Origin: a phage
DNA length: 64,000 bases
Assembly (NCBI GenBank): GCA_024975835.1
Contig: GCA_024975835.1_4840.1
Strand: one strand, 5' to 3'
A program made the position numbers and the translations under genes. Under the pieces are notes generated by a model, which was not told where the DNA came from, ran no database searches, and saw only the letters and a program-made list of their open reading frames with translations. The first letter of the stretch is position 1; the number at the start of each line of letters is the position of its first letter. Shown here in pieces: positions 36,862-62,084 of the stretch.

Positions 36862-36875
36862 TGGCTAAATATCTT
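36862..36875 (+). promoter_or_regulatory. late-promoter-like motif CTAAATA (T4 TATAAATA analogue)
   Basis: GGCTAAATATC about 40 nt upstream of the gp6-like start; motif recurs upstream of six other plus-strand structural genes. Confidence 0.45.
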
Positions 36876-36911
36876 CAACACCATATTCAAACTCAGGTGA
36901 TGGAGATTATC

Positions 36912-38690
36912 ATGGCCACGCAAACAGTCCCTTCACTCGATGTCAGGGCTTTCGAGTATCTTATCAAGAAGCGTATGAAAGCTGATCCAACTTTCAAGGA
37001 TTATGACTTTGAAGGTTCTGGTCTCAGTGCAATCGTGCGTATCTTGGCCTCGGATGCCAACTCTATCGGGTTCATGCAGAACATGCTGAATGGCGAAAGC
37101 CATCTTCACTCTGCTCAACAGCGTTCTAATGTCGGTCTTGCGGCCGGGTTCTTGTCGTACACCCCTCATAACTACCAGGCGGCGTACCTGTATGCAAACG
37201 TCACAGTCACTCCATATGACGCCAGCACGGCTCCGGACACGATTATAATGGATCGCCGCGCGATGTTCATTGGGGCGAAGGATGGCAAATCCTACAACTT
37301 CACGGTTGAACAACCTGTGAGTGCCTCTCTTGTAGACGGCTCTTACAAGTTCGAGAACATCAAACTCATACAGGGTAACTGGCTGTACAAGTCCTATGAC
37401 GTGGAAGGCAGCGCGATTTCTACCTATGTGATCCCATCTTCTTCCGTGGACATCGACCATATGGTAGTGCAGGTACAGGAATCTGAGACATCTGACGTGC
37501 GGTCTACCTTCTCACGGTATGTCAGCCCGTTCGATTTGAGCCAGTATGCGCAACTCTACTTCGTTGAGCTGGGGTTGGACGGAATGTACACGTTCGAATT
37601 CGGTGATGGGTACATCTGCAAGCGAGTAGAAGACGGCAATGTTGTGTACCTCCAGTATCTGGAGACAGCTGGTGCGGACGGCAATGACATCACTGCCTTG
37701 TCCTCCGCGTCTTCCATCGGGGGATTCAACCTTGTAGATGTTGAGCTGGTGTCAGAACGTTCTTCCGGCGGTGCGGACCCAGAGAGCATTGAGGACATCA
37801 AGCGCCTTGCTCCGCTGGCTTATCAGGCAGAGGGTGCGGCGGTAGCCGAAGTCGATTATGCTGTGTTGACCGAGCGTCTGTTCTCCAACGTCTCCCGCGC
37901 CAAAGCATATGGCGGAGACACGCTCTCTCCGCCCGACTCCGGATACGTTTACATTGCTGTGGTGCCTTCTGTTGGTGAGACGCTCTCGGACGCCGAGAAG
38001 GCAGATATCGTGGCGACGTTGGACAAGTACAATGTGGGTACGATCACACCCAAGATTGTCGACGCTGAACTGACTTATGTTGATGTCACCACCCGCGTGT
38101 TCTGGGATCCGACTTCCACGTCCTATACCGAAGAGCAGTTGAAGACAGTCGTGAAGAACGGTGTTGTCAACTGGGGCTTGGGGAACCTAGAAGGATTCGA
38201 CGAACTGTTCGATAAAGAGCAGTTACAGTCGGCCATCACCGACATGGACAGATCGATAGTGTCAAACATCACTTCTGTGAAGTATAAGCGCCATTTCAAG
38301 CCAGACTATGGGGTACTGGACAGCTTCACATTCGATTTTGGGCGCTCGATTGCGTCTGGTTCTGTGCGTATCAGTGGGTTTAAGCCGCTTCCGGCCGAGG
38401 TCGAATTCACTTACTACATACGCGACGTCAGTGGTGTCCTGAATATGTACAAGGTGAGTACAACAGACACGACCAAGGAATATCTGGTACAAGCTGTTGG
38501 AACGGTTGATTATGTGAATGGCGTTGTTGAACTCCAGCGTATCATAGTATCCAACTACAACACTGAGGGTGTGACAATAATTGTGTCTCCAGACGGTCTT
38601 GACCAGAACATTCAGGCCACACAGAATCAGGTGCTCCGCATCGGTGCTGTAACTGTGGAGCCGGAGGTGCGTTATGTCCAAAGATCTTAA
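36912..38690 (+). CDS. 6: baseplate wedge protein (T4 gp6-like)
   Basis: KDYDFEGSGLSAIVRILAS resembles the N-terminal region of T4 gp6 as recalled; about 590 aa; start at ATG 36912 with GGTGATGGAG site. Confidence 0.65.
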   Translation: MATQTVPSLDVRAFEYLIKKRMKADPTFKDYDFEGSGLSAIVRILASDANSIGFMQNMLNGESHLHSAQQRSNVGLAAGFLSYTPHNYQAAYLYANVTVTPYDASTAPDTIIMDRRAMFIGAKDGKSYNFTVEQPVSASLVDGSYKFENIKLIQGNWLYKSYDVEGSAISTYVIPSSSVDIDHMVVQVQESETSDVRSTFSRYVSPFDLSQYAQLYFVELGLDGMYTFEFGDGYICKRVEDGNVVYLQYLETAGADGNDITALSSASSIGGFNLVDVELVSERSSGGADPESIEDIKRLAPLAYQAEGAAVAEVDYAVLTERLFSNVSRAKAYGGDTLSPPDSGYVYIAVVPSVGETLSDAEKADIVATLDKYNVGTITPKIVDAELTYVDVTTRVFWDPTSTSYTEEQLKTVVKNGVVNWGLGNLEGFDELFDKEQLQSAITDMDRSIVSNITSVKYKRHFKPDYGVLDSFTFDFGRSIASGSVRISGFKPLPAEVEFTYYIRDVSGVLNMYKVSTTDTTKEYLVQAVGTVDYVNGVVELQRIIVSNYNTEGVTIIVSPDGLDQNIQATQNQVLRIGAVTVEPEVRYVQRS

Positions 38691-39530: not shown

Positions 39531-40721
39531 ATGGCCGATTTTCTGAGTCAATACACAGGTCAGCAGATTGATGCAATCCTTTCTTCTGTTGACGATAAAA
39601 TAAGCAAGACTGATGTTGTCAACGATTTCGCTGTTGATGATCCGTTGTTCCCTCCTTCAGCTCATTTGACATACGAGCTGAAGCGTTCTGTGGATAATAT
39701 CTACGACACACTGGAAAACAAAGTGATCCGCACCGACGGTGGTGAACAAACGATCAACGGGAGAAAGACTTTTGTTGCGTTGTTGACCGCCAACGGCGGC
39801 CTGACTGTTCCGGCTGGAAAGAAACTTTCTATCGCGGATGAGCCTACGATAGCGACAGATGGTGTTAACCTGAGCATGTTGAGAAAGCATGGTGTCAGTG
39901 AAGACACTACCCCACCTGGTTCTGGTTTGGCTGGGGAGTTGTTGGCATCCGGATATTACAAATTCAATTTGGATTTCACCAAATTGTCTGCGTATATCGG
40001 ATCAACGTTGCCGACTTCAATCCCAGTACAAACAGATTCTGGAGCGCGTTATTGGACAATGACTGCATTTTTTGATGCGTTGTTTGCAGATAACCGATTT
40101 AATGGATATGTGACAACGACAGCGTATGATGCAGATATGCTGAGTTTAGAGTCCCAGATTAATAACATCAACACATCGTTGAACGGGAAAGTCAACACAT
40201 CGACTTACAACACTAAGATGGCGTCATTGGATTTGAGTATCTCCAATATCAATACGTCTCTGGGTAATAAAGTCGAGGTCAGCACGTACAACACGAAGAT
40301 GACATCTCTGGATAACAGCATCAGTTCTCTTTCCAGTGATAAAGTTAATGTATCAACGTATAATGCCAAGATGACCTCTGTCGACAATAGTTTAGGGAAC
40401 GCCGTTTATCGTACCAAAACGAATTTGTCTTCTTACACGGTTTCGGCTTCTGGGACGACGGCTCTTCCAGATTTTGATTTGGTGAACCTTTGTCAAATAC
40501 TGGTGACCGCGCAATGGGGAACAGGTAACGTTGTTGATACATATCGAGTAACCATAACTCGCGACGGAACTATCAAATCGGAGTTGTTGGTTCAGAAAAG
40601 TACGAGCGGTACAGTGACGTTCACAGGTTCTGTGGTGGGTGGTAAATTGAGAATTTCCGTTGTTAATGCGAACACGACGACTGCGTGCTACGTTGACTAC
40701 AATCTAGTCGCTTCTTTCTAA
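39531..40721 (+). CDS. tail fibre/fibritin-like protein with internal 27-aa tandem repeats
   Basis: AAGGAG site; three repeats of the KVNTSTYNTKM-SLD-SIS type; Ser/Thr/Asn-rich. Confidence 0.5.
   Translation: MADFLSQYTGQQIDAILSSVDDKISKTDVVNDFAVDDPLFPPSAHLTYELKRSVDNIYDTLENKVIRTDGGEQTINGRKTFVALLTANGGLTVPAGKKLSIADEPTIATDGVNLSMLRKHGVSEDTTPPGSGLAGELLASGYYKFNLDFTKLSAYIGSTLPTSIPVQTDSGARYWTMTAFFDALFADNRFNGYVTTTAYDADMLSLESQINNINTSLNGKVNTSTYNTKMASLDLSISNINTSLGNKVEVSTYNTKMTSLDNSISSLSSDKVNVSTYNAKMTSVDNSLGNAVYRTKTNLSSYTVSASGTTALPDFDLVNLCQILVTAQWGTGNVVDTYRVTITRDGTIKSELLVQKSTSGTVTFTGSVVGGKLRISVVNANTTTACYVDYNLVASF
40164..40400 (+). repeat. in-frame tandem repeat (about 81 nt x 3) within the fibre-like gene
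   Basis: Repeated nucleotide and peptide units visible by eye. Confidence 0.5.
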
Positions 40722-40726
40722 AGTGA

Positions 40727-40740
40727 AAACTAAATACCCC
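40727..40740 (+). promoter_or_regulatory. late-promoter-like motif CTAAATACCCC
   Basis: 34 nt upstream of the first tailspike ATG (40774); part of an 11-bp inverted repeat with the GGGGTATTT ribosome-binding region. Confidence 0.45.
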
Positions 40741-40773
40741 TAGATGAAACGAACACATTTAGGGGTATTTGAA

Positions 40774-43700
40774 ATGGCTAATAAACCAACACAGCCTGTT
40801 TTCCCTCTCGGTCTGGTGGCTGAAGAGCAGTCTACTTTGGCTGGTGTCGTCAACACGGGTACGATTGAGCATGGACCAGATGCTGTCCTGACTTTACCCG
40901 AGGGTAATGCCAGCGCAGGACTCCCGTCTTCCGTTCGCTACAATGCCGACTCCGACGAATTTGAGGGCTTCTATGAAAATGGTGGATGGTTGCCGCTGGG
41001 TGGCGGTGGTATCCGCTGGGAAGTCCTTCCGCATGCCTCTACGGCAACGCTCACTGAAGGGCGAGGCTATCTCATTAATAATACCACAGGGGCATCTACA
41101 GTGGTTCTCCCTTCCCCTACGCGTGTTGGGGATTCTGTTACTATTTGCGACGCTTATGGGAAATTTGCCACTTACCCATTGACTGTGTCTCCTTCTGGAA
41201 ATAATTTGTATGGCTCCACTGAAGACATGGCTATAACAACTGATAACGTATCAGCAACGTTCACTTGGTCTGGACCTGAACAAGGTTGGATTATTACATC
41301 CGGCGTCGGTCTTGGCCAAGGTCGTGTCTACAGTCGTGAAATCTTTACAAAAATTTTGGCGTCTGAGACAAGTTCTGTCACTCTCAATACTCCACCAACA
41401 ATCGTGGACGTGTATGCTGATGGAAAACGTCTTGCGGAATCCAAATATTCACTAGATGGGAATGTAATCACTTTCAGTCCTTCTTTGCCAGCCAGCACAG
41501 AACTTCAGGTGATTGAATATACTCCTATTCAATTGGGTATTGGGGATGGTTCTGGCTCTTCCACGATTACCTGGGTCTATAATGGGGGTTCAGCGATTGG
41601 TGGTGAAACCGAAATCACGTTGGACGTCGTTGTTGATGATGTTCCGGCCATTGATATAAACGGAAGTCGCCAGTATAAAAATCTGGGGTTCACATTCGAT
41701 CCATTAACCAGTAAAATCACTCTTGCGCAAGAACTGGAACCAGAGGATGAAGTTGTTGTAATTATCAATGGAACACCAAACATCTATAATCAAATTGATC
41801 ATACTTTGCGGGAAGTTGCTCGCGCAACCAATGTTAAAGATACAGAGGTCGTTTATTTTAGTGTTGGTGCTGCGTTAAGTGGGTATAAAGTTATTTATGA
41901 CAAGGAGACGCAAAGGGCTTATCCCTTGCCTGCTGATATTGCCCCTGGTACTACTGCTGTCAGTCTTAGTTCTTCCGCTGTACTTGTGCATTCAGCGGGT
42001 TCTGTAGACCTCGGGGAATTGGCTGTTACTCGTGAAGAGTACGTCACATTGTCCGGAACATTTGATACTGGTGTAACAGTTAATACCAAGAATGAACTGG
42101 TTGTTTTTACTGATGGTAAGTACCGTTGGGATGGGGTGTTGCCTAAAGAAGTTTCTGCTGGCTCAACTCCAGAGACTGCTGGTGGTGTAGGTGCGGGAAA
42201 ATGGTTGAGTGTTGGTGATGTATCATTGAGAGCCGACTTACTGTCAGGTGGCATGACTGATTTAATTGGATTTCCTGGGTACAACAATCTTACAGCATTC
42301 TTGCATACCACTGTTCGTACAGTAGAAGAGTTCAGAAGTGACGGACTAACTGACGCACAGGTATTCCAAGCGGCAATCAATGCAGGTAACGTGCGTGTGC
42401 CAGCAGGTAGCGTTATTAACATCACAGGGAATATTGATATCACTATCCCAGCCAATCGTTTAATTGTTGTAGATGACGGAGGTATATTACGCTCTAACGG
42501 TCGTTTTACAGCTTACGGCGTAAACGATGTTCATTGGGTAATTAACGGACTAGTTGAAAGCACTGGCATGGTTGCGGCCCCGGCAAAATCTGGATGGCCC
42601 AATACAGCAGAAGGCACTCAAGCGGGAGATGAGCGTGGGTTTATTGAGTTTGGTGGTGTTGTATTCGCCGGTAACGATGGGAAGAATTATTCTGTAACTG
42701 GTTCAGGGCACATTCAGGGTCCATGGTCTGGAACTCCTAACGTTTCAGATTTAGCCAATCAGTTAAATAAAAAGGGTATTGCTGCGTGGAACTGCTCAGG
42801 ATTCACTGTTGAAGGCGTTAGTATCGACGGCTTTGAAGGTGAGCAAGTGTATTGGTTTGCTCGCAACGCAGACAACAGAGACGCAATTTTCAATAGAGTA
42901 AAAAGTACCAATGCACGTTTTAACGCCCTGAACATGAACGTGTACAGCGCAACAAAAAATATTCGTGTGATCGATTGTTACACCAATAATTCGTACAACG
43001 GAATTGAATCATCTGCTGGTGATATCATTAACACAATCCATGACAATCCGGTTAACACAGGTATTCTGTTTGGTTCAGGTACTGGTGGTGGCAACCGATT
43101 AATTGAAGGCAATCAGGTGAACGAATGCCTCGGAACACCTTATTCACTACTTTATAATAAGGACTATGAAAGTCGTGGGTATGTACCTAACGTTACAGTG
43201 GTAAACAACACCGCAACAAACCCCGGCGTTCACTTCATCGCCATCTCAGGCATCACTGGATTCAAAGTCGCCAACAATACATGTTACGGGCTTAAAACAG
43301 GTAGATTTATTCAGGCCACCGTTTTACAAGGCGGTATTATAGAAAATAATACTAACTACAAACCATCACCAGGGACAGAGCACGTCTATCGTGGCGAATG
43401 TTATAGCGTAGAAGAGCATAATAACGCGCGTGTACTTTTAGGCGGTTCGTATGTTACTGCCGCCGCGTCAGACCACGCCATAACCGGGGGGAATTCAAGC
43501 GCTATAACGACATTCGGCAATCGTGAAAACTTCAAGGATTTACGTGCTGACAGTCCAGCAATCGGAACTGGCGCAGAACTTAGATACTCTGTTGATATAG
43601 GCGCCGCATTTACTCCTGTATCGTTAAGTATGCAACTGACCACATATGGGGGTTCAGGCGCTCAAGCTGACTGGTCTATCAATAACCTAAAGATAAATCC

Positions 43701-44253
43701 TAATGATGTACTTGGGCAGTCATGGGTGTCTCGACATACAGGACATTGGGAACCTGGGACTGATGGTATACAAAATTTCGGGTCACCAACGCGCCGTGTT
43801 AACAACAGCTATTTCACGGTAGCGCCTACTGTAACGTCTAATGAAATGGCTAAAACTGCGCTGTTAGATCTATCTGAAGCAGAACGTAACGCGGCATTAG
43901 AAATTAAAGATAACATTCGCAAGTATAAGCTATTAGATGCTATCGCTATTAAAGGGGAGGATGGTGCCCGTTGGCACTTCGGTGTGGGTGCACAAACGGT
44001 AGGCGATATAATGAGAAAACATGGACTTAATCCTGCTGACTATGGGTTTTGGTGTCACGATACATGGGAAGACCAATACACGGATGTAATGAAAAAAATT
44101 TATACCGGAAATACCGTTGTAAATGAGGAAGGACTTTCAGTTCCTGAATACACATTAGAACCAACAGGTGAAAGGATGCTTGTTAGGACCGCCGGAGAAA
44201 ACTACGGCATTCGTTATGATGAATTGTCTATGTTTATATTAAGTGCAATATAA
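40774..44253 (+). CDS. tailspike protein with N-terminal anchor region, beta-helix and C-terminal chaperone-like domain
   Basis: 1159 aa; conserved about 130-aa module (VKDTEVVYFSVGA...KYRWDG) shared with the next tailspikes; Gly/Asn/Thr-rich beta-helix composition; start at 40774 because the promoter motif precludes the 40744 ATG. Confidence 0.7.
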   Translation: MANKPTQPVFPLGLVAEEQSTLAGVVNTGTIEHGPDAVLTLPEGNASAGLPSSVRYNADSDEFEGFYENGGWLPLGGGGIRWEVLPHASTATLTEGRGYLINNTTGASTVVLPSPTRVGDSVTICDAYGKFATYPLTVSPSGNNLYGSTEDMAITTDNVSATFTWSGPEQGWIITSGVGLGQGRVYSREIFTKILASETSSVTLNTPPTIVDVYADGKRLAESKYSLDGNVITFSPSLPASTELQVIEYTPIQLGIGDGSGSSTITWVYNGGSAIGGETEITLDVVVDDVPAIDINGSRQYKNLGFTFDPLTSKITLAQELEPEDEVVVIINGTPNIYNQIDHTLREVARATNVKDTEVVYFSVGAALSGYKVIYDKETQRAYPLPADIAPGTTAVSLSSSAVLVHSAGSVDLGELAVTREEYVTLSGTFDTGVTVNTKNELVVFTDGKYRWDGVLPKEVSAGSTPETAGGVGAGKWLSVGDVSLRADLLSGGMTDLIGFPGYNNLTAFLHTTVRTVEEFRSDGLTDAQVFQAAINAGNVRVPAGSVINITGNIDITIPANRLIVVDDGGILRSNGRFTAYGVNDVHWVINGLVESTGMVAAPAKSGWPNTAEGTQAGDERGFIEFGGVVFAGNDGKNYSVTGSGHIQGPWSGTPNVSDLANQLNKKGIAAWNCSGFTVEGVSIDGFEGEQVYWFARNADNRDAIFNRVKSTNARFNALNMNVYSATKNIRVIDCYTNNSYNGIESSAGDIINTIHDNPVNTGILFGSGTGGGNRLIEGNQVNECLGTPYSLLYNKDYESRGYVPNVTVVNNTATNPGVHFIAISGITGFKVANNTCYGLKTGRFIQATVLQGGIIENNTNYKPSPGTEHVYRGECYSVEEHNNARVLLGGSYVTAAASDHAITGGNSSAITTFGNRENFKDLRADSPAIGTGAELRYSVDIGAAFTPVSLSMQLTTYGGSGAQADWSINNLKINPNDVLGQSWVSRHTGHWEPGTDGIQNFGSPTRRVNNSYFTVAPTVTSNEMAKTALLDLSEAERNAALEIKDNIRKYKLLDAIAIKGEDGARWHFGVGAQTVGDIMRKHGLNPADYGFWCHDTWEDQYTDVMKKIYTGNTVVNEEGLSVPEYTLEPTGERMLVRTAGENYGIRYDELSMFILSAI

Positions 44254-44257
44254 CAAA

Positions 44258-44277
44258 AACCCCGCTTTGGCGGGGTT
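44258..44277 (+). terminator. rho-independent terminator
   Basis: AACCCCGCTTTGGCGGGGTT hairpin then CTTATTATAC. Confidence 0.5.
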
Positions 44278-44288
44278 CTTATTATACC

Positions 44289-44352
44289 TTTGTTCATAAA
44301 TTTATTAGTTCAGACTAAATACCCTATATTGGCAAATCCTTTATGGGGTATT
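44289..44352 (+). repeat. direct repeat copy 1 (intergenic promoter/leader cassette)
   Basis: About 64 nt nearly identical to 46949..47012 (one mismatch by eye), containing TTGTTCATAAATTTATTAG and CTAAATACCC. Confidence 0.6.
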
Positions 44353-44355
44353 ATC

Positions 44356-46674
44356 ATGATTTCTCAATTCAATCAACCACGCGGCTCCGCTTCCATAGAA
44401 GTTAACAAACAATCTATCGCTCGAAATTTCGGTGTCAAAGAAGACGAAGTCGTTTATTTCACTGCTGGTATTGATCTCAGTGGATTTAAAGTAATTTATG
44501 ATGAGACCACCCAACGGGCTTATTCTCTCCCTTCCGGTATTGTTTCAGGGACAACTGCAATTAGTCTGGACGAACGAGCTATCCTCACTCATTCCGCTGG
44601 TTCTGTTGATCTAGGGGAACTTGCCGTAGCCAGAGAAGAATATGTAACCTTACCTGGTTCATTTGATACCGGTGTAACCGTCAATGCTAAGAATGAATTG
44701 GTTGTCTTTACCGACGGCAAGTACCGTTGGGATGGGGAGATTCCCAAAATAGTACCTGTCAACACAACCCCTAAAGATACTGGGGGTGTTGGTCTAGGGG
44801 CATGGTTAAGAGTCGGCGATGCATCTTTGCGTTCTGAAGTTTACTCAAATATGGCTTGGGTTTCTCCTGAAATGTACGGTGCACTTGAAACGGAATCTGA
44901 TGCGGATACTCAAGCTGTTATAGATGCGTTTATTACCGCGAAGACAATGGGGCTGGCTGTGAAGCTGTCCAGAATATATAAGTGTGATCAAAACATATCA
45001 GTAGCTAATTTTTACGGAGATATTTTTGGCGTAAGTATGGCCACATGCGGAATAAAATTTGCTGCTGGATATGGTCTTATCATTGATAACTCTGGGACCA
45101 CAGTAGTACGCAAACCTGTAGGTCTTTGTAATTTCACCATTAAAGCCACTGGTAAACGACAAGGCACTGCTCTAGAGTTTCTAGGTACTGGTGGAATAGC
45201 TTATGCACGACAACTTATTGTAAGAGATTTAGATGTATCAAATGATGCTGGAACCCCTACCTCTTTTGATGTAGTATTCAAGTTAAACCGTGCAGGTCAA
45301 TGTGTATTTGATGGGGTGAATGTCGCTGGCGGTGGCACAAGCGACCCCAACGCTCGCATGGGCAAAATATTCGACCTGTACTCAACAAAGAATATCAATG
45401 TTGTCAACGGTTCTTATCAGAACTTCGACACCTTCATGTACGCGCATGACGATACCGAAGGTGTTGTGGTTTTCGGTAACCACATCATCGCAGGTCGTCG
45501 TGGTGTTGTCTCAGAAAACAATGTTGGCAACTTGTTCCAGGTAACGAACAACCACTTCAACACATCGTTGAGTGCTGTAGAGTTGGGCGATCTGTCTAAC
45601 AACGGTGGGAACCATAGCATAATCACCGACAACTTCTGTATGGTATGGAATGGGATTCCTGAAGATGATACTACGCCATATATCGGGTTCAAGTCCTGTG
45701 CCATGTACGGAACCTATAGTGATAATGAGGTGCTTCTGTCTGGTTTCACTAAAGACGTTACTCACACCTTGTTTACTTCTAATGCCACAGGGACCAGAAC
45801 GGCACAATACAATATAGTAAGCAACCCAAGAGTTAATAATTGTACCAGAGGCATTCATATGCTGGCTGGCACCCAATCGAACCATGTGAGCAACGTCCAG
45901 CGCGTAGGCGTAACACTGGCAAATGCCATCATAGATGAAGGGGCAAACAACAGGTCATGGATGTTTGATGTAGATAATAATGCATTTATGACCAGAAACA
46001 TAAAATTGTGCACTCCAGGTTCAGCCGTTGCGCAGCAAATTCGTTTTTACTCCGCTACTGATGCAAATACACCAAGCGCCATTCTCCGAGTATCTGGAGG
46101 CGTTGCCGGTGTTGGCGGGGATGGGACGGCAGAGCTTACTGCTGGTACTACCGTCTTTAAAAACATTAGACCGTCAGCTGCAAACACTTATAGCTGCGGA
46201 TCTAGCGGTGCACCGTGGTCTGGCGGGTTCACACAAACTGCATTCACCGTGACATCTGATGCTGATTACAAATCAGATCCACTGCTGATGACTGATGATA
46301 TTCTTGATGCAGCAGAAGAGGTACAACTTGTCCAGTATCAATATCTCGACAGGATTGAAGAAAAAGGAGCTGACGGTGCCCGCTGGCACTTCGGAGCCAT
46401 TGCACAACGGTATGTAGAGGCATTTGAAAGACACGGGCTTGATGCTCATCGCTTTGGGTTCATCTGTTATGATGAATGGGGTGATGCTCCTGCTGTCATA
46501 GATGAAGATACTGGCGAAGTGATCACGCCAGCTATTGAGGCAGGATCAAGATACGGCATTCGTTATGAAGAAATGCTGGTAATGGAAGCAGCGCTGCAAC
46601 GCAGAAACTATGCGCGGCTACTTGATAAATACGAAACACTTGAGGCTCGTATTAGCTCATTAGAGAATAAATAA
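44356..46674 (+). CDS. tailspike protein with C-terminal chaperone-like domain
   Basis: 772 aa from ATG 44356 (GGGG site); N-terminal module shared with the other tailspikes; C-terminal GARWHFG...YGIRYEE region shared with the first tailspike. Confidence 0.7.
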   Translation: MISQFNQPRGSASIEVNKQSIARNFGVKEDEVVYFTAGIDLSGFKVIYDETTQRAYSLPSGIVSGTTAISLDERAILTHSAGSVDLGELAVAREEYVTLPGSFDTGVTVNAKNELVVFTDGKYRWDGEIPKIVPVNTTPKDTGGVGLGAWLRVGDASLRSEVYSNMAWVSPEMYGALETESDADTQAVIDAFITAKTMGLAVKLSRIYKCDQNISVANFYGDIFGVSMATCGIKFAAGYGLIIDNSGTTVVRKPVGLCNFTIKATGKRQGTALEFLGTGGIAYARQLIVRDLDVSNDAGTPTSFDVVFKLNRAGQCVFDGVNVAGGGTSDPNARMGKIFDLYSTKNINVVNGSYQNFDTFMYAHDDTEGVVVFGNHIIAGRRGVVSENNVGNLFQVTNNHFNTSLSAVELGDLSNNGGNHSIITDNFCMVWNGIPEDDTTPYIGFKSCAMYGTYSDNEVLLSGFTKDVTHTLFTSNATGTRTAQYNIVSNPRVNNCTRGIHMLAGTQSNHVSNVQRVGVTLANAIIDEGANNRSWMFDVDNNAFMTRNIKLCTPGSAVAQQIRFYSATDANTPSAILRVSGGVAGVGGDGTAELTAGTTVFKNIRPSAANTYSCGSSGAPWSGGFTQTAFTVTSDADYKSDPLLMTDDILDAAEEVQLVQYQYLDRIEEKGADGARWHFGAIAQRYVEAFERHGLDAHRFGFICYDEWGDAPAVIDEDTGEVITPAIEAGSRYGIRYEEMLVMEAALQRRNYARLLDKYETLEARISSLENK

Positions 46675-46762
46675 AAATCCTACTCTCCTGAGAGTACTAT
46701 GTATATGCATTCGTTATTTACGGTTGTAAACTATAGTAATTACATTAACAATCCAATAGGTA

Positions 46763-46780
46763 AGCCCCAGCATATGGGCT
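46763..46780 (+). terminator. rho-independent terminator
   Basis: AGCCCCAGCATATGGGCT hairpin followed by TTTTTGTTG. Confidence 0.5.
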
Positions 46781-46914
46781 TTTTGTTGTACCCCAAACAA
46801 TCCTTTATGTAGACTGTTTTAGTCAATTACGACTTAACTAACCTGAGAAAGTCCCTATGGGAAATGAACCAGATAACGTAACTCTAGCGAGAGACTGAGA
46901 AACATTTCGAAAAC

Positions 46915-46948: not shown

Positions 46949-47012
46949 TTTGTTCATAAATTTATTAGTTCAGACTAAATACCCCATATTGGCAAATCCT
47001 TTATGGGGTATT
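46949..47012 (+). repeat. direct repeat copy 2 (intergenic promoter/leader cassette)
   Basis: Near-identical to 44289..44352; includes the late-promoter-like CTAAATACCCC and GGGGTATTT leader. Confidence 0.6.
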
Positions 47013-47017
47013 TTCAA

Positions 47018-49081: not shown

Positions 49082-49085
49082 TAAC

Positions 49086-51278: not shown

Positions 51279-51292
51279 ATACTAAATATCTC
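51279..51292 (+). promoter_or_regulatory. late-promoter-like motif CTAAATATC
   Basis: TACTAAATATCTC about 35 nt upstream of ATG 51323. Confidence 0.4.
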
Positions 51293-51322: not shown

Positions 51323-54300
51323 ATGCAAGAAATGAACCTCAACCGCCGCCCATATTGGGATGACTGGAATCCAGAGAAGCGTTTTTCGCGCATCCTATTC
51401 CGTCCGGCACCTATCAAAGTTCAGACGCGTGAACTGAACCAGATGCAGACCATCTTCCAGGATCAACTGGAGAAACTTGGCAACCATCTGTTCAAAGACG
51501 GTTCAATGGTTATCCCCGGCGGCCTAACGATCACCAACACTGCTGTGTCCATGAAGTTCACTCTGGCTGGTGGTAGTGAGTTCACTGATCTGGAAGGTAT
51601 CTCCGAACTCTATGTTCTGGGCAAGGACAACAATGCGAAAGCACGCGTCCTGTCCTTGGAACGTTATCCGGCTGAGCCAGATACAATGTATGCCATCTTA
51701 GAGATGACTGAGAGTGGTAGTTCAGACGGTTTCGAAGCTGGCGACAATCTATACTTCAACACCTATGACGTGAACGATAACTTCATCCGTGTCGGCTATG
51801 GTGTGGCCGATACTGTTGGTGGTTCGATTGTCGCTCGCATGACAAAGGGTGTTTATTTCGTTCGTGGTATGTTCCTGGATGTTGAACCAACCACTTTGAT
51901 CGTAGACAACGCATCGAACTCTACATCTCACCGCATTGGCTTCAAAGTTACAGAAACAATCGTGACTGAAGCAGAAGATGAAAGTCTGTTCTCCAATGCT
52001 CAGGGTACTCCGAACTCTAAAGCCCCTGGTGCGCATCGCCTGCGCGTCGACCTCGTGTTGTCTCGCTACGGTTATGATGAAGAAGTGGCCGACTTCGTTG
52101 AACTGGCGAAGGTGAAAGACGGTCGCATTCAGTCCATGGTCACCCAGTCAACGTACAACATCCTCGAAGACGCCATGGCTCAGCGTACCTATGAGACTAA
52201 TGGTGACTACAACGTCTCTACTCACCAGATCGACCTGCGCGAACATCTGAAACAGAACAACAACGGCGGCGTTTACACTCCGGCTGAAGGTGGTGATGAA
52301 AGCAAATTCGTGGCGGTTATGAAGCCAGGGATATCCTACGTTCGTGGTCGTCGTATCGAAAACCTCGGCGAAGAGCTGGTCATAATTGAAAAAGCCCGTG
52401 ACACTGATATCCTGAACAACAACCCTGTGGCTGTTTCGACTGGCAACTATCTGGTGTCCAAGAACTCCAAAGGGGTTCCGGTTGTCTCCCGCACAATCCG
52501 CTACAAGTTCCTGAACGCATCTAGCGATGTGCAGGCCACCGCCCTGCTGATTTCGGCAGAGCGCTCCGGTACTGAATTCCGTCTGTATATGCGCGACCTG
52601 GTTGTGACTGGAGACATGGGTACGGTGACCAAAGTCGCTTATGAAGAAAGCGGTACAACGATGTTCTCTTGCGAACTGGAGTCCAATCAGTTCAGTCAGA
52701 GTTCGGCGATTGACCTGATCTTCCCTCTTCCTGTATTTGGTGTGAAGACCCTAGCACCTACAGGCACCATCGACATCAACTACACTGTCCTGCGGTCAAA
52801 CAAGATCACGTTGAACGCCGCTGGTGCAGGCTCAATCTCTGCTCCTCTGGGTTACAGCTTCAGCCCTGAGTTTTCACTGTACTCCGCAGCGAAAGCAGAT
52901 GGCACTGCAGCTCAGTTTGATATCTCTTCGGGACTGTCCCTGGCTGGTACTCCGGTTGGTTCAGCACTGCAGATTTCCCTGGGCGCGGGGTACGCCAACC
53001 AGTCTATCAACCTGTTGGCATTGATGGTCCGCACCACAGCGACGATCAAGACCAAGACTGTTACCGAAGTCACCGAGACTGTGACGTTTACTACGGCAGC
53101 CAGCGTACAACTTGGGAACCACGACGGATACAAGCTGGTCAGCGTGAAGAACGCAAATGGTGCTGACGTCACCTCGAACTTCACTCTGGACGGCGGTCAG
53201 CGTGATGCTGCATACTACCTTTCTAACCTCGTATCGTCTACTGGATCCATCTCAGGCGTGTTCACAGTGGTGTACCAGTACTTCGCTCACAGTTCTGGTG
53301 ATTTCTTCACAGCGGACTCCTATTCGTCCATCAACTACCCAGACATCCCGAACTATGTTTCATCCAGTTCTGGTACTGTGTATGGGTTGGCCGACAGCCT
53401 GGACTTCCGTCCTAAGATCACCAACGGAACGTCTGACACGGACATGGTTCGCCCGAACACCGCGATCATCCTAGATGCAGAGTACTATCTGCCTCGTATT
53501 GATGCCGTGTATCTGGCAGACAACGGCGTGTTCAACGTTGCTCGCGGTGTGAGTTCCAACAGCCTGGCTTCCCCTGCGATCCCAGACAACGGCATGCGTC
53601 TGTACGAATTGATGATCCCACCATACACGGCCAACATTGACGACATCCAGATTCGCACTATCGACAACCGCCGCTACACGATGCGCGATATCGGTAAACT
53701 GGAGACCCGTATCTCCAATGTCGAATATTACACCTCACTGTCTCAGCTGGAATCCTCGGCGATGGCGCAACAGGTGTTCGATCCAATTACTGGCAACCCG
53801 CGCTTCAAGAACGGTATCGCAGCAGACCCGTTCAAAGACTTCCGTCTGATCGACGATTTGTCTGCAGACTGGGTGGGTTCAATCGACACTGACAATGGTC
53901 GCCTGCGTCCGTTTGTTCAGCAGAACGCGATTGACCTGACGCCAGTCGGTTGGAACAACGTTCAGGATGGCATGGTTGTATGCAACTACACCCGTGAGAT
54001 CTCTGTCCGCCAGGACTATGCAACCACGACCATCAACGTGAACCCGTATGCGGTGTTCAACTGGGAAGGTTTCCTGAAACTGAACCCAACTACTGATTAC
54101 TGGTTTGAGAACTACTATGTTACCCCACGTGTGATCAACGAAACGATCAACACCCGTGGTGCGATCAAAGAAGGTTCTGTGTATGGCACATGGCGTACTG
54201 TGTCCGTGTCTGAGCGTGTGTGGGAACCGCATGGTGCGGGTGGTGTATGGTGGGGCTACCGCTACCGCACGACTGTGTCTACCCGTGACATTACCACGTA

Positions 54301-56161
54301 CACGTACACCGACAGGACGACTACCACCATGACTGGTGAGCAGATCGTTGAAACGCAGGTAATCCCATACATGCGCAAAACGAACATCAACTTCGAAGCC
54401 ACAGGCCTGCGTCCGTTCACTCGTGTGTATCCGTTCTTCTCCGGGCGTGATGTGAGCGCGTACTGTACCCCAAACGGTGGCGCTCTGGGTGGTGCGTTGA
54501 ATACTGATGCCAACGGCAACATCAAAGGTGTGTTTGCGGTTCCTCAGAACGAGACTATCAAGTTTAACACGGGTGACAACGTCTTCCGTCTGACTGACAG
54601 TCCTGTGGACAGCAAGTCTGCTGATGATACCCTGACCAATGCTGAGGCTGTTCATAAGTCCTTCGGTAAGAAACAGGGTATCCAGAAGACTTATGTCAAC
54701 ACTCGCGTCCTGGGATACACTGCGACCAAGTCTACGGAAAACAAAACAGAGACGGTTGAAGTCGCGAAGTGGAAAGATCCTATCGCCCAGTCCTTCATGG
54801 TTGCCACCAATATCGGCGGCGAATACATCGAAGGCATCGAAGTGTTCTTCTCTACCAAGTCTCGCGATATTCCAATCACTTTGGAAATCCGTGAGATGAG
54901 CAATGGTCTGCCAGCGACGACTGTCGTCACTCGTAAGACTCTGAATCCATCAGAAGTTTCCATCTCCACAGACTCTTCTGTGCCGACGATGTTCAAGTTT
55001 GATTATCCTGTGTATCTGCAGGCGCAGACTGAGTTCGCGATTGTTCTCTTGGCCAACACTCAGGACTACAACGCATACATCGCAGAGATGGGTAAGAAGA
55101 ACTTGCTGACCAACGAGTTCATTGCCAAACAGCCGTATACTGGCGTGTTCTTCACATCTTCAAATGGTACGACCTGGACTCCAAACCAGACTGCTGATAT
55201 GAAGTTCCGTGTGTATCGCTGTAACTTCTCCGCTGGTTCAAACATCGTGACCTTCGATGCTAAAGTCGGTCCGAAGATCCGCCCTCTGGGTCTGAACACC
55301 GTGAAATGTGTCAACGGTTCTTCAACTGTTACTGTGTACGCTCCGGGGCATGGCCTGACTGCGGGTGAAAGTGTTACTCTGTCTGGGTTGACGGGTGGTT
55401 GTGGTTTCACTCCTGAGCAACTGAACGCTCGACACACTGTGACTGATGCGACGTTCACGACGTTCAAATTCGTTCTGAGTTCCAACGCCGACTCCGACGG
55501 TCAGATTGGTGGTGAAGCGGCTTCTTTCCTAGGCAACTACTTGGTAGACATGTTCTATGCAAGCGTCACCAATTCAGCCCTAGAAGGATCTGTATTGAAA
55601 CTGGAATACCGCTATCGCGATGCGACCTCCAACTCATTCTCTGATTGGGTTGAGTTCGAATCCGATACGGACGTGTCTCTGCCGACGGAAGGTATCTATC
55701 GTCAGGTGGGCGACTTCCAGGTTCGTGCAACTATGACTCGCAACGAGAGTAATGTCTACACGGCTCCAATGATCGACGGTGATGATTTCACTATCATCTT
55801 CAACACCTACGGTGTGGATCCGTTTGAAGACGTGTTCAGCTACGTGACCAAGGATATCGGATTCGATAACCCTTGCACCACTCTGAAACAATACTTCGGC
55901 GCGATGCTACCTTCTCAGTCTTCAATGACTGTACAGGTTAAACTGCTGCGCGCAGGTCAGGAGATGGATGACGTGGAATGGGAAACTGTGACACCGACAT
56001 CCCCTCTGGTCAATGACGGTTCTACATTCTTCGAATATGAGTATGACAAGACTGTAGCCAGTACCAATCCTTTCGTTGGCCTGAAGATCCGCCTGCTGGT
56101 CAGAGGCAACCGCACAGCACCGCCGTCATTCAAAGATTTCCGTTTGATTGCTCTGGCATAA
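51323..56161 (+). CDS. large virion structural protein (1612 aa; baseplate/tail-associated)
   Basis: Very long ORF with structural-protein composition between tailspike and neck genes; start at ATG 51323 with GGAG site. Confidence 0.5.
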   Translation: MQEMNLNRRPYWDDWNPEKRFSRILFRPAPIKVQTRELNQMQTIFQDQLEKLGNHLFKDGSMVIPGGLTITNTAVSMKFTLAGGSEFTDLEGISELYVLGKDNNAKARVLSLERYPAEPDTMYAILEMTESGSSDGFEAGDNLYFNTYDVNDNFIRVGYGVADTVGGSIVARMTKGVYFVRGMFLDVEPTTLIVDNASNSTSHRIGFKVTETIVTEAEDESLFSNAQGTPNSKAPGAHRLRVDLVLSRYGYDEEVADFVELAKVKDGRIQSMVTQSTYNILEDAMAQRTYETNGDYNVSTHQIDLREHLKQNNNGGVYTPAEGGDESKFVAVMKPGISYVRGRRIENLGEELVIIEKARDTDILNNNPVAVSTGNYLVSKNSKGVPVVSRTIRYKFLNASSDVQATALLISAERSGTEFRLYMRDLVVTGDMGTVTKVAYEESGTTMFSCELESNQFSQSSAIDLIFPLPVFGVKTLAPTGTIDINYTVLRSNKITLNAAGAGSISAPLGYSFSPEFSLYSAAKADGTAAQFDISSGLSLAGTPVGSALQISLGAGYANQSINLLALMVRTTATIKTKTVTEVTETVTFTTAASVQLGNHDGYKLVSVKNANGADVTSNFTLDGGQRDAAYYLSNLVSSTGSISGVFTVVYQYFAHSSGDFFTADSYSSINYPDIPNYVSSSSGTVYGLADSLDFRPKITNGTSDTDMVRPNTAIILDAEYYLPRIDAVYLADNGVFNVARGVSSNSLASPAIPDNGMRLYELMIPPYTANIDDIQIRTIDNRRYTMRDIGKLETRISNVEYYTSLSQLESSAMAQQVFDPITGNPRFKNGIAADPFKDFRLIDDLSADWVGSIDTDNGRLRPFVQQNAIDLTPVGWNNVQDGMVVCNYTREISVRQDYATTTINVNPYAVFNWEGFLKLNPTTDYWFENYYVTPRVINETINTRGAIKEGSVYGTWRTVSVSERVWEPHGAGGVWWGYRYRTTVSTRDITTYTYTDRTTTTMTGEQIVETQVIPYMRKTNINFEATGLRPFTRVYPFFSGRDVSAYCTPNGGALGGALNTDANGNIKGVFAVPQNETIKFNTGDNVFRLTDSPVDSKSADDTLTNAEAVHKSFGKKQGIQKTYVNTRVLGYTATKSTENKTETVEVAKWKDPIAQSFMVATNIGGEYIEGIEVFFSTKSRDIPITLEIREMSNGLPATTVVTRKTLNPSEVSISTDSSVPTMFKFDYPVYLQAQTEFAIVLLANTQDYNAYIAEMGKKNLLTNEFIAKQPYTGVFFTSSNGTTWTPNQTADMKFRVYRCNFSAGSNIVTFDAKVGPKIRPLGLNTVKCVNGSSTVTVYAPGHGLTAGESVTLSGLTGGCGFTPEQLNARHTVTDATFTTFKFVLSSNADSDGQIGGEAASFLGNYLVDMFYASVTNSALEGSVLKLEYRYRDATSNSFSDWVEFESDTDVSLPTEGIYRQVGDFQVRATMTRNESNVYTAPMIDGDDFTIIFNTYGVDPFEDVFSYVTKDIGFDNPCTTLKQYFGAMLPSQSSMTVQVKLLRAGQEMDDVEWETVTPTSPLVNDGSTFFEYEYDKTVASTNPFVGLKIRLLVRGNRTAPPSFKDFRLIALA

Positions 56162-56174
56162 GTAGTATTAACAA

Positions 56175-56191
56175 GGCGGGGTTGCCCCGCC
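56175..56191 (+). terminator. stem-loop after the large structural gene
   Basis: GGCGGGGTTGCCCCGCC hairpin; no strong T-tract. Confidence 0.3.
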
Positions 56192-56210
56192 ATTAACAGA
56201 GGATATTATC

Positions 56211-56459
56211 ATGCGTGGTGTAAAAGTACAAGGGCATGCATCGATGATGAGAAGTAGCTCTTGCCCTGGGGCTATCATCTGCACAGACAATGCTGCCGGT
56301 TTGGCAGCACTGAACGCTCGTCGAAATCAGGAAGAAAAGGACAGAACTATTGCAGCGCAGGCAGCGCAAATAGATCAACTGACAGCGATGGTACAACTCA
56401 TGGCGGAACACCTCGGGATTGAACTCCCGTCAGGAGGCCAAGATGGCAACCCAAACTGA
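56211..56459 (+). CDS. hypothetical protein
   Basis: 82-aa ORF with GAGGA site; overlaps the next gene by 17 nt in another frame. Confidence 0.35.
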   Translation: MRGVKVQGHASMMRSSSCPGAIICTDNAAGLAALNARRNQEEKDRTIAAQAAQIDQLTAMVQLMAEHLGIELPSGGQDGNPN

Positions 56460-57789: not shown

Positions 57790-57802
57790 CGACTAAATAC
57801 CT
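57790..57802 (+). promoter_or_regulatory. late-promoter-like motif CTAAATACC
   Basis: GACTAAATACC 24 nt upstream of ATG 57823; near-inverted repeat with the TTGAGGGTAT ribosome-binding region. Confidence 0.45.
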
Positions 57803-57822
57803 TCAAAATTGAGGGTATCGAT

Positions 57823-59881: not shown

Positions 59882-62072
59882 TGTAGAATACGCCCCACTC
59901 AAGACGGGGTTTAAAACAGAAGACGTCAGACTGCGTATGGACCAAACGTTCATGCGCAAGCCGTCTGTGCGCGCTCCTCGCGTGGAGTTGATGCTAACAG
60001 ATGAGCAGGAATCGGAGTTCGTCGAGTGCGCGATGGACGCCCATTACTTCGCCGCCAACTACTACAAGATCACGACCATCGATAAAGGCTTCATCCTCTT
60101 TGACATGCACGATTATCAGAAGCAGTTGTTCCATGACTTCCAGGACTATCGATTCAATGTGGTCGTCCAGGCTCGTCAGTCTGGGAAATGTGTAAAAGGT
60201 GACACGCTTGTCACAGTTTACGATACTCTCAGCCAAGAGGAGTTGATCCTGACCATAGGGGAGCTTCACAGCCGCTTCGAGGACGTCAACCACGCTGTGC
60301 CGCTGAATACCATTGGCAACCATGACAAGTTCGTGGACAGCCGCTTCGGTAAACGTTACTTTGTACAATCCGATAGTGGCTGGGTTCCGGTTATCGCGGC
60401 GCATAAGACGAAGAAATATGCGGAATTCGTTATTGTCACCGTTACCGGGCGACGAATTAACGTGGCCGATGAACATATGTTCTTCACTCCGGAAATGAAG
60501 GAGATATTTGCCAAAGACCTGAATGCTGGGTCATACATCATGACGTCAGAAGGTCCAGAAGAAATCCGTGAGATTTGGCAGACTGGTGAAATGCATCACA
60601 TGTATGACCTACAGGTGAAATCTGGTGATCAGCGCTACTACACCAACGGCTTCCTCAGCCACAACACGACAGTCGTGGCAGCATTCCTTCTCTGGTATGC
60701 GATGTTCCACTCCGACAAAGAGATCGCAGTACTGGCGAACAAAGAGAAGCAGGCGATTGAAATCCTGGATCGTATTCGAAAAGCATATCAAGATTTGCCA
60801 TTCTTCCTCCAACAGGGTTGTGAGAAGTTCGGTTCCACGCTGATAGAGTTCGAAAACGGATCAAAGATCTACGCCTATGCGACATCTTCCGACTCCATCC
60901 GTGGTCGATCTGTATCGCTCCTGTATGTGGACGAAGTGGCGTTCATTGAAAACGACTTTGAATTCTGGGAGTCTACATTCCCGGCGATTGCATCTGCAGA
61001 GACTTCACGTTGTATTCTGACCAGTACGCCGAAAGGTCAGCGCGGGTTATTCTACGACATCGTCACCAAGGCGAACCCAGAACACCCACAATACAACGAC
61101 TTCAAACTCACAGAGGTCCCATGGTATCGTGTTCCAACGTACACCAAAGATCCAGACTGGGAATCCAAACAAAGGGCGAAGCTGGGTGATGCACGTTTCG
61201 ATCAAGAATTTGGCATTAAGTTCCGTGGTTCTGTGGGATCACTGATACCTGCCAAGTGTCTGGACAAGATGACCTCGAAGCTGTATCAGGAGCCGAACGA
61301 GTTCACCAAGATTTACCACGACTACGATCCTAAGCGCATCTATATGGGTATCGCAGATACAGGCAAGGGTGTCGAAGGGGATTATTCTGTGCTGACCATT
61401 ATCGACATCACAGACTATCCTCACAAGATCGCAGCCAAGTATCGGAACAACACGATACCTCCAATGATGTATGCGTACACAATCGCCGATATGGGCGAGA
61501 AGTATGGAACGTGCCCGATGCTAGTCGAGACCAACAACGACGTGGGTGGTCAGGTAATCACTATCCTCTACCAGGAAATTGAATATCCCGAGATCATCTT
61601 CACCACAACAGATACCAAGGGCACAGGCAAGAGAATCGGTGGTCGCCGCCCTGAACCTGGTATCAATACCAACAAGAAGGTGCGCACAAACGGCTGTGCC
61701 AACCTGAAAGCCCTGATTGAACGTGAAATGCTGGTGATAGATGACCAGGACACGATAGATGAACTCAGTACATTCGTATGGACTGGGACAAGGTATGAAG
61801 CCGATGATGGTTGTCATGATGACTGTGTAATGCCTCTTGTGCTGTATGCATGGGCGGTGAAACAAGAATGGTTTAGTGACCTCACCAACTCCAGTATCTC
61901 AGTCGACATGAGAGGACGGTTGTCTGCGATGGAAGAATCACAGATGCTACCATTTGGAGGTATGATGTCGACGCCAGATCCTCACTCTGTGGAGAACATC
62001 CCAGGGTTCGGTGGAATTCAGGTTTATGACGACCGCTCTGGTATGTCTATGGAAGAATGGCTGAGACGGTGA
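59862..62072 (+). CDS. 17: terminase large subunit (T4 gp17-like) interrupted by a mini-intein
   Basis: Walker A split as QARQSGK / intein / TTVVAAF; removing 159 aa leaves about 577 aa; start at ATG 59862 (ORF track used GTG 59853). Confidence 0.85.
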   Translation: MAYQKRDVEYAPLKTGFKTEDVRLRMDQTFMRKPSVRAPRVELMLTDEQESEFVECAMDAHYFAANYYKITTIDKGFILFDMHDYQKQLFHDFQDYRFNVVVQARQSGKCVKGDTLVTVYDTLSQEELILTIGELHSRFEDVNHAVPLNTIGNHDKFVDSRFGKRYFVQSDSGWVPVIAAHKTKKYAEFVIVTVTGRRINVADEHMFFTPEMKEIFAKDLNAGSYIMTSEGPEEIREIWQTGEMHHMYDLQVKSGDQRYYTNGFLSHNTTVVAAFLLWYAMFHSDKEIAVLANKEKQAIEILDRIRKAYQDLPFFLQQGCEKFGSTLIEFENGSKIYAYATSSDSIRGRSVSLLYVDEVAFIENDFEFWESTFPAIASAETSRCILTSTPKGQRGLFYDIVTKANPEHPQYNDFKLTEVPWYRVPTYTKDPDWESKQRAKLGDARFDQEFGIKFRGSVGSLIPAKCLDKMTSKLYQEPNEFTKIYHDYDPKRIYMGIADTGKGVEGDYSVLTIIDITDYPHKIAAKYRNNTIPPMMYAYTIADMGEKYGTCPMLVETNNDVGGQVITILYQEIEYPEIIFTTTDTKGTGKRIGGRRPEPGINTNKKVRTNGCANLKALIEREMLVIDDQDTIDELSTFVWTGTRYEADDGCHDDCVMPLVLYAWAVKQEWFSDLTNSSISVDMRGRLSAMEESQMLPFGGMMSTPDPHSVENIPGFGGIQVYDDRSGMSMEEWLRR
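60189..60665 (+). mobile_element. mini-intein (159 aa) in the terminase Walker A motif
   Basis: Begins with Cys (CVKGDTLV), ends with His-Asn (GFLSHN) followed by Thr; splicing reconstitutes GKT; too short for a homing-endonuclease domain. Confidence 0.7.
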
Positions 62073-62084
62073 TCACTAAATATC
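62072..62084 (+). promoter_or_regulatory. late-promoter-like motif CTAAATATC
   Basis: CACTAAATATC about 45 nt upstream of the sheath start. Confidence 0.4.

Follow-up and report, generated by a model that had tools for sequence, protein, structure and literature searches.

CTAAATA boxes of a ViI-like phage as probable late promoters embedded in hairpins over the ribosome-binding site

Why does a short motif of the form CTAAATA(C/T)C recur in front of the structural genes of a phage, and why does it often form an inverted repeat with the ribosome-binding site (RBS) of the gene that follows? This question is raised by a 64,000-nucleotide (nt) stretch of phage DNA (contig GCA_024975835.1_4840.1 of the NCBI GenBank assembly GCA_024975835.1), which is referred to here as the window and in which the motif had been noticed between positions 36,862 and 62,084. 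A preliminary description, made from the letters alone and without database searches, proposed a T4-type late promoter accompanied by either a leader stem-loop that sequesters the RBS or a palindromic operator. By sequence comparison, the structural region of the window showed 95-97% identity to Agtrevirus phages and approximately 82% to Kuttervirus, and on this basis the window is assigned to Agtrevirus (Ackermannviridae, ViI-like group). The reading favored here, with a probability of roughly two in three, is that the motif represents late promoters, most of them embedded in one arm of an RBS-masking hairpin that would close the RBS on read-through RNA.

A motif search of the window, as had been recommended in the preliminary description, revealed nine exact matches to CTAAATAYC (Y, C or T) versus 0.48 expected, a number that none of 100 shuffled sequences reached. 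A start codon in the same orientation lies 30-49 nt downstream of every copy (counted from the motif's C to the A of the ATG), which replaces the distance of 25-45 nt given earlier. Two exact copies are located on the minus strand (30277-30285 and 30376-30384) together with a variant box at 21002, and the motif is thus not absent before minus-strand genes, as had first been thought; among the seven plus-strand positions originally listed, six were correct and 62075 is really 62076. The only further CTAAATA strings in the window (47987 and 57833) are both intragenic and have no YC tail. The ten sites, with the lengths of some encoded proteins in amino acids (aa), are as follows.

20993..21002, minus strand: variant box TATAAATATC, of the T4-consensus TATAAATA type, 35 nt before a 55-aa membrane/coiled-coil gene (20799-20966, ATG 20966)
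30277..30285, minus strand: box CTAAATACC, preceding a 152-aa gene (29788-30246)
30376..30384, minus strand: box CTAAATACC, preceding a 28-aa remnant of a homologue of CBA120 orf229 (ATG 30351)
36865..36873, plus strand: box CTAAATATC, preceding a gp6-like baseplate wedge gene (ATG 36912)
40730..40738, plus strand: box CTAAATACC, preceding a tail-spike gene (TSP4-like, likely ATG 40774)
44315..44323, plus strand: late box preceding a tail-spike gene (TSP3-like, ATG 44356)
46975..46983, plus strand: late box preceding a tail-spike gene (TSP2-like, likely ATG 47018)
51282..51290, plus strand: late box preceding a 1612-aa virion gene (ATG 51323)
57793..57801, plus strand: late box preceding a head-closure/neck gene (ATG 57823)
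62076..62084, plus strand: late box preceding the tail sheath gene (ATG 62125)

The names of the genes behind the boxes are supported by PHROG matches and by the annotation of phage vB_CECAV_050, in which they encode a baseplate wedge, three tail spikes, a large virion protein, a neck/head-closure protein and the tail sheath. The xTAAATA box was invariant at all ten sites; CTAAATACCCC was found exactly at 40730, 46975, 30384(-) and 30285(-), and the remaining copies differ in the tail only. No other element common to the 60 nt upstream of the ten boxes could be found, except within a duplicated tail-spike cassette.

At seven of the ten sites, a stem of 7-16 base pairs (bp) with a minimum free energy (MFE) of -10.2 to -21.0 kcal/mol connects the box with the gene start: the 5' arm begins in the box, and the 3' arm is the Shine-Dalgarno (SD) region. 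The inverted repeat with the RBS region, which had been proposed for at least four cases, is therefore real and present at more sites than that. Where computed, the z-scores of the stems against mononucleotide shuffles were -3 to -7.4. Across the hairpins, the loops measure 4 to 23 nt and the 5' arms cover offsets +1 to +16 relative to the start of the box. The strong hairpins are listed below in order of stability. Where given, the opening cost, i.e., the free energy needed to make the RBS (-16 to +2) single-stranded, refers first to a long RNA with its 5' end 40 nt ahead of the box and then to a short RNA that starts 12 nt after the first base of the box.

40731..40771, plus strand: hairpin of site 40730, 16 bp, TAAATACCCCTAGATG / CATTTAGGGGTATTTG, MFE -21.0 kcal/mol; opening cost 20.2, then 4.4 kcal/mol
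46977..47013, plus strand: hairpin of site 46975, 12 bp, AAATACCCCATA / TATGGGGTATTT, MFE -18.8 kcal/mol; opening cost 19.3, then 6.1 kcal/mol
30354..30380, minus strand: hairpin of site 30376, 11 bp, ATACCCCATAC / GTGTGGGGTAT, 5-nt loop, MFE -17.2 kcal/mol, z -7.4
44318..44352, plus strand: hairpin of site 44315, 11 bp with one U-G, AATACCCTATA / TATGGGGTATT, MFE -16.1 kcal/mol; opening cost 14.4, then 5.5 kcal/mol
20970..20998, minus strand: hairpin of site 21002, 11 bp, AATATCCTCGC (20998-20988) / GTGAGGATATT (20980-20970, over the SD GAGGA), 7-nt loop, MFE -14.0 kcal/mol
36871..36907, plus strand: hairpin of site 36865, 7+4 bp, ATCTTCA (+ACACC) / (GGTG+) TGGAGAT over the SD GGAG, MFE -11.6 kcal/mol; opening cost 17.7, then 7.6 kcal/mol
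57797..57818, plus strand: hairpin of site 57793, 9 bp, ATACCTTCA / TGAGGGTAT, 4-nt loop, MFE -10.2 kcal/mol; opening cost 12.7, then 3.9 kcal/mol

The core arms AAATACCCC/GGGGTATTT pair exactly at 40730 and 46975, those at 30376(-) are ATACCCC/GGGGTAT, and those at 44315 (AATACCCT/GGGGTATT) contain one U-G pair. The arms also differ from gene to gene, reading ACCCC.../...GGGGT before the spikes, ACCTTCA/TGAGGGT before the neck gene, ATCTTCA/TGGAGAT before the wedge gene and ATCCTCGC/GTGAGGAT before the 55-aa gene. Observed directly are the motif and its placement, the stems, the complementarity of each arm to its own partner, and where the 5' arm lies with respect to the box.

Several results indicate that the two arms pair as RNA. 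When each 5' arm was combined with every 3' arm, cognate pairs reached -13.6 kcal/mol versus -7.6 kcal/mol for non-cognate pairs (permutation p=5e-5), and the best partner was the cognate arm in seven of ten classes. This permutation across genes was used because MAFFT alignment of the tail-spike-4 leaders misplaces the register of the 3' arm between subtypes, so that formal covariation counts were not used, and because the family is too close for many double-sided changes among orthologues. The sense strand folded better than the antisense strand at all strong hairpins, and the U of the G-U pairs lies in the 5' arm in 14 of 20 instances; over all 26 sites, the strand asymmetry was marginal (p=0.04) and was consistent at the strong hairpins only. 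Among orthologues (19-22 related loci), 12% of the stem columns versus 43% of the loop columns were variable (p=1.6e-6). The stem of the 30376(-) hairpin is invariant in orthologues and its loop variable, the 21002(-) hairpin is conserved in CBA120 and vB_CECAV_050, and the 57793 hairpin is conserved in 17 related loci. Because the arms are partner-specific, the loops range from 4 to 23 nt, the U-G pairs belong to the sense strand and the stems are more conserved than the loops, pairing in RNA is favored as the explanation of the inverted repeat, and a fixed protein operator and a chance by-product are rejected at least for the seven strong sites.

The effect of such pairing on the RBS was estimated from the opening cost. 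The start of the short RNA, i.e., the predicted +1, was set by analogy with T4 and Aeh1. The late-box set contained 24 genes (8 from the window and 16 from CBA120), and 212 other genes cut at equivalent positions served as the control; as the window and CBA120 sites are orthologous, the pooled 24 are not independent, and statistics for CBA120 only are hence given as well. With the long RNA, the median opening cost was 12.6 kcal/mol for late-box genes versus 6.4 kcal/mol for the others (p=5e-7), whereas with the short RNA it was 4.6 versus 4.9 kcal/mol (p=0.76). The difference between long and short RNA separated the two sets at p=9e-10, and at p=9e-7 in CBA120 alone, where a gain of at least 5 kcal/mol was found in 11 of 16 late-box genes versus 20 of 160 others (p=2e-6). 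When the 5' end was moved in 2-nt steps, the cost stayed at 11-13 kcal/mol up to offset +4 from the C of the box and reached background (~4.8 kcal/mol) by +12. The control genes were called by a simple open reading frame (ORF)/SD heuristic, and some of their starts are wrong (e.g., those of two CBA120 late genes), which adds noise and no bias toward the result. In the same metric, the positive control, T4 gene e, fell from 16.6 to 0.9 kcal/mol, compared with 12-20 to 4-7 kcal/mol at the window sites, and three of six box-proximal genes in the 50-100 kb region of T4 were positive.

The arm covers the box and approximately 5 bases before the predicted start, and should hence be absent from RNA made at this promoter; given the start position in T4 and Aeh1, what a late-promoter transcript would be missing is precisely the masking arm. 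Of the RBS-sequestering leader stem-loop suggested earlier, the structure is thus supported, whereas its assignment to the leader is not: the 5' arm overlaps the promoter box, so the hairpin would mask the RBS solely on transcripts reading in and would not be a leader of the late mRNA.

The identification of the box itself draws on published work and on relatives of the window phage. CTAAATAcCcc and TTCAAT[N14]TATAAT have been reported as two 'unique regulatory motifs' of these phages in a 2020 genome paper, without a mechanism (PMC7283392). In the T4-like phage Aeh1, CTAAATA starting at -12 was inferred to be the late promoter (PMC1524935), and the T4 late promoter has just one 8-bp box, which precedes the start by about a helical turn and is followed by an A/T-rich segment (PMC2988020). 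The CBA120 paper (2011) reported gp55, gp33 and gp45 homologues in the family, the late promoter sequence then not being identified, and the AG3 paper lists these homologues as Orf122, Orf076 and Orf165, respectively. The CBA120 annotation includes late sigma, late co-activator and clamp genes, and gp55 homologues were detected by tblastn throughout Ackermannviridae, a distant Vibrio phage included. Across the whole CBA120 genome, CTAAATA precedes approximately 17 genes, nearly all with virion or late functions, among them the scaffold, tube cap, resolvase and endolysin genes, and the boxes at orthologous sites are conserved across the family. With a wedge protein of 38% identity, Vibrio phage K357 is a distant relative that also carries the box before structural genes (L025, 26009, 29345, 32835 and 39013, plus strand). 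In the same phage, a 600-aa product annotated as 'RNA polymerase sigma factor' is encoded next to the DNA polymerase gene.

The T4-type late promoter of the preliminary description is hence upheld as far as sequence allows, by the resemblance of the box, the virion genes behind it, the terminators, the conservation in the family and the gp55-like sigma; this assignment of the CTAAATA boxes is well supported, if unproven, and the gp55-type machinery that the window phage presumably uses is deduced from its relatives. Promoters of a T7/SP6-like single-subunit polymerase and N4-like hairpin promoters were considered and rejected, given a ViI-like lineage that has gp55, long loops that vary from site to site, and a 3' arm that in every case is the SD.

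From these observations, we infer a transcription start, a read-through RNA and a translational effect as follows. CTAAATA (variant TATAAATA) would be a -10-type box read by the host RNA polymerase with a phage gp55-like late sigma, and transcription would start approximately 12 nt downstream of the first base of the box. The 5' arm would be made of the last bases of the box and the C/T-rich bases behind it ('cCcc'), and the 3' arm of the gene's own SD region. A transcript entering from upstream would contain both arms, and its RBS would be closed; a transcript from the gene's own late promoter would begin inside or behind the 5' arm, form no stem and be translated. Each such gene would then be translated essentially only from its own late promoter. 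Read-through could originate from early promoters on the minus strand and from upstream late promoters or leaky terminators in the structural cluster.

Candidates for such sources are present in the window. TTCAAT-N14-TATAAT with at most one mismatch occurs in seven copies (758, 9915, 17768, 25164, 29123, 32356 and 36583; window 758-36608) versus 0.22 expected, and six of them are on the minus strand, ahead of early gene blocks. Two lie upstream of late boxes.

25164..25189, minus strand: early-type motif TTCAAT-N14-TATAAT, upstream of and in the same orientation as the 21002(-) hairpin gene
32356..32381, minus strand: early-type motif with one mismatch, upstream of and in the same orientation as the 30376(-) and 30277(-) sites

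Judging from its sequence, the 25164-25189(-) motif is a candidate source of read-through transcripts. Because co-oriented early-type motifs lie upstream of them, the three minus-strand sites match the situation of T4 late genes within early units. On the plus strand, 44315, 46975 and 51282 sit 30-40 nt behind strong terminators (44315 is 38 nt behind the intrinsic terminator 44258-44277, and 51282 follows the terminator 51230-51251), and the boxes at 40730 and 62076 are located 9 nt past the upstream stop codon and 4 nt past the terminase stop, respectively. A sigma-70/terminator consensus scan was not above shuffles (36 versus 30 promoters, 16 versus 12 terminators) and was used only to locate obvious terminators. 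The plus-strand sites are preceded by other late genes, in some cases with a terminator in between. The purpose of the plus-strand hairpins may be to mask the RBS against late read-through RNA, which is the weakest part of the proposal.

A number of points weigh against the embedded-promoter mechanism, besides the dependence between pooled sites mentioned above. Five of the seven plus-strand sites lie in the late structural cluster, several of them right behind strong terminators, and the benefit is less obvious than in T4 because read-through at this cluster would itself be late. Only weak 6-bp stems were found at 51282 (CTCTAT/ATGGAG, 51290-51315) and 62076 (TCTTTC/GAAGGA, 62083-62116), with approximately -5 to -6 kcal/mol and no partner specificity, and folding revealed no RBS hairpin at 30277(-), where the opening cost was 5.6 versus 4.2 kcal/mol. 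In some Kuttervirus orthologues (L010/L011, before the 1612-aa gene), a weak 5' arm lies downstream of the predicted start. The K357 boxes examined have no RBS-complementary arm; since this Vibrio relative has the box without hairpins, the hairpin is regarded as an added layer and not as part of promoter recognition. The segment behind the box departs from the A/T-rich rule of T4, and its C-richness is read as the price of an arm that resembles an anti-SD. The conservation of the stems could be due in part to constraints on promoter and SD instead of pairing. Moreover, no gp55, gp33 or gp45 homologues were found within the 64-kb window, the searchable literature contains no mapped transcript 5' ends for any Ackermannviridae phage, and a 2024 review of the family does not mention promoters.

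Other explanations of the hairpins were weighed against the same data. If transcription started at or upstream of the box, the hairpin would belong to the late mRNA and could stabilize the message or throttle its translation. The strong stems with the SD included, the few orthologues with a weak arm downstream of the predicted start and the lack of mapped start sites in the literature are compatible with this idea, which is nevertheless unlikely: the box is the sole element common to the sites and stands right behind terminators, it matches boxes of the gp55 type, which precede the start by about one helical turn, the decisive arm bases are at offsets +4 to +11, and it would be counter-productive to close the RBS of abundant virion proteins with stems of 15-20 kcal/mol. 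Less probable still is an attenuator or insulating terminator that acts on read-through RNA instead of or besides a translational block, its G/C stem and U-rich 3' side halting RNA from upstream shortly ahead of the gene. Such an element would likewise be bypassed by transcripts begun inside the arm, and the 3' arm does end in UAUUU(U) at several sites, but this U run pairs with the AAA of the box and leaves no free tail, 57793, 36865 and 30376 have no U tract, and a terminator would have no need of the SD, with which the 3' arm coincides at every site. The terminator scan does not call the stems either, and canonical terminators are already present 35-40 nt upstream.

A feature of the DNA rather than the RNA, either the palindromic operator for a dimeric regulator that the preliminary description had offered as its second option or a cruciform or hairpin aiding promoter opening (as in N4 early promoters), could explain why the inverted repeat overlaps the promoter and why the arms are perfect in DNA at 40730 and 46975. 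It is considered highly improbable, as there are at least seven different arm sequences whose partner arm changes to match, the spacing varies from 4 to 23 nt, the mismatches are U-G wobbles on the sense strand that would be A-C on the opposite strand, and the distant relative has the box without the repeat, which implies that promoter function does not need it. The chance seems just as slight that the complementarity is a by-product, in which a pyrimidine-rich stretch is complementary to any purine-rich SD and the TATT behind the SD belongs to the local initiation context. It is true that CCUCC-like strings can pair with any SD, that ATTATCATG stands behind the SD of several genes, one of which (56211) has no box, and that 51282, 62076 and the CBA120 helicase site pair no better with their own partner; however, cognate arms beat non-cognate arms in the permutation described above, with gene-specific extensions such as CCCCTAGATG/CATTTAGGGG and TCCTCGC/GTGAGGA, and late-box genes without cCcc have no stem. 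Furthermore, the corresponding segment of T4 late promoters is A/T-rich, so a promoter does not need to be C-rich there.

The remaining features of the window concern the genes around these sites. In-frame ATGs at 40744 and 47003 (plus strand) sit in the hairpin loop or the 3' arm, and for this reason the two spike genes begin too early in the mechanical ORF list, by 30 and 15 nt; the starts that are properly spaced from the SD are 40774 and 47018. A 105-nt direct repeat (44252-44356 and 46912-47016, 91% identical) comprises terminator, spacer, late box and RBS hairpin before two different tail-spike genes; it has the appearance of a portable expression cassette, at which spikes might also be exchanged by recombination. 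A fourth tail-spike-like gene (ATG 49141, plus strand) has a strong G/C hairpin terminator ahead of it (window 49050-49141) and no late box, and its expression would depend on terminator read-through or an unrecognized promoter. The G+C content is 0.43-0.45 over the tail-spike genes (window 40000-52000) versus approximately 0.50 elsewhere, which is consistent with spike modules from other sources.

On the minus strand, the 30376 box and hairpin serve only the 28-aa ORF (MKTFLQYSERR...), which is what remains of a 149-aa gene, orf229, of which CBA120 has an intact copy. The 30277 box lies inside this remnant (window 30265-30384), and its first 14 nt, CTAAATACCCCATA, are common to both boxes. 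The 55-aa protein encoded at 20799-20966 combines a transmembrane segment at its N terminus with a charged coiled-coil tail (phrog_3879, function unassigned in PHROG), and its gene is the only one in the early block with a perfect T4 TATAAATA box and an RBS mask; it could be a late protein for lysis or the envelope. The leader of a small virion gene at 56211 (window 56150-56211, plus strand) contains a degenerate box, CATAAGTAG, and a terminator-like G/C hairpin between this box and the SD/spacer GAGGATATTATCATG, which is identical to that of the 55-aa gene. An Rfam scan of the window returned four tRNA genes as its sole matches (32657-33627, minus strand), and no RNA family matched the box/hairpin leaders in the window at the gathering threshold.

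If the embedded-promoter mechanism holds, the late genes concerned should be translated from their own promoter only, which bears on the engineering of CBA120 and other ViI-like phages, for which tail-spike swapping and reporter insertion are in active use, as very different expression is predicted for an inserted gene that keeps the 5' arm and one that loses it. It may also provide a mechanistic reading, as a gp55-type promoter plus an RBS-mask arm, for a motif that has been repeated unexplained in Ackermannviridae genome papers. A more speculative generalization, which is possible and regarded as rather doubtful, is that the embedded-promoter hairpin, in T4 an occasional safeguard, is a genome-wide rule in Ackermannviridae, with approximately two thirds of late promoters gating translation by transcript origin, that the terminator-promoter-hairpin unit is a self-contained, exchangeable spike cassette, and that cCcc is an anti-SD mimic not involved in promoter recognition. 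Such a cassette would keep the output of each gene independent of its neighbors and would thus tolerate frequent spike swapping.

Current understanding is not overturned by these results: the motif has been published, and the mechanism is textbook T4. The accessible literature on Ackermannviridae, which does not comprise the original 2012 genus paper, contains no mention of the box pairing with the RBS, and the design in this family, its extent and the reading of cCcc as a hairpin arm have apparently not been described there.

With regard to promoters, the window boxes resemble those of the T4-type gp55/gp33/gp45 system (PMC2988020) in that they are single A/T-rich boxes of 7-8 bp at the -10 position, have no common upstream element, are placed before virion genes and occur in a lineage with a sigma homologue. 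They differ in that the box starts with C, as in Aeh1, and in that the segment behind it is often C-rich, whereas that of T4 is A/T-rich. The Ackermannviridae ('Viunalikevirus') motif CTAAATAcCcc is the same string as the window boxes, at intergenic positions.

With regard to the hairpins, the closest known systems are T4 e, soc, 49, I-TevI/II/III and segB and Aeh1 mobE, in which an RBS hairpin has a late promoter in the DNA of its 5' strand; long early and middle transcripts fold the helix over the RBS and late transcripts cannot, with an effect of approximately 100-fold for gene e (PMC3014915, PMC2988022). T4 reviews name about a dozen such genes, namely e, soc, 49, 39, 25, 26 and several homing endonucleases. 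As in the e/soc/49 type, the SD and/or AUG at the strong sites of the window lies in the helix and a gp55-type box in the 5' strand, and long upstream transcripts would by analogy be untranslatable. Unlike in T4, the box is CTAAATA instead of TATAAATA, the arm starts within the box and supplies the cCcc tail of the family motif, and the hairpins are also found inside late clusters and just behind terminators. They further involve approximately two thirds of the box-proximal genes (11 of 16 in CBA120), including tail spikes, baseplate wedge and neck, so T4 lysozyme-type control would extend beyond Straboviridae and to structural genes. The CBA120 endolysin gene (55339-55375 of its record, minus strand) combines a TTTAAATA box with a 13-bp stem over the RBS and an opening cost that falls from 19.1 to 5.6 kcal/mol, and the CBA120 gene for a RuvC-like resolvase (L002, ~44215-44257, minus strand) shows the promoter-in-hairpin design with a 13-bp stem as well; these two genes, the functional counterparts of T4 e and 49, thus share this design with them.

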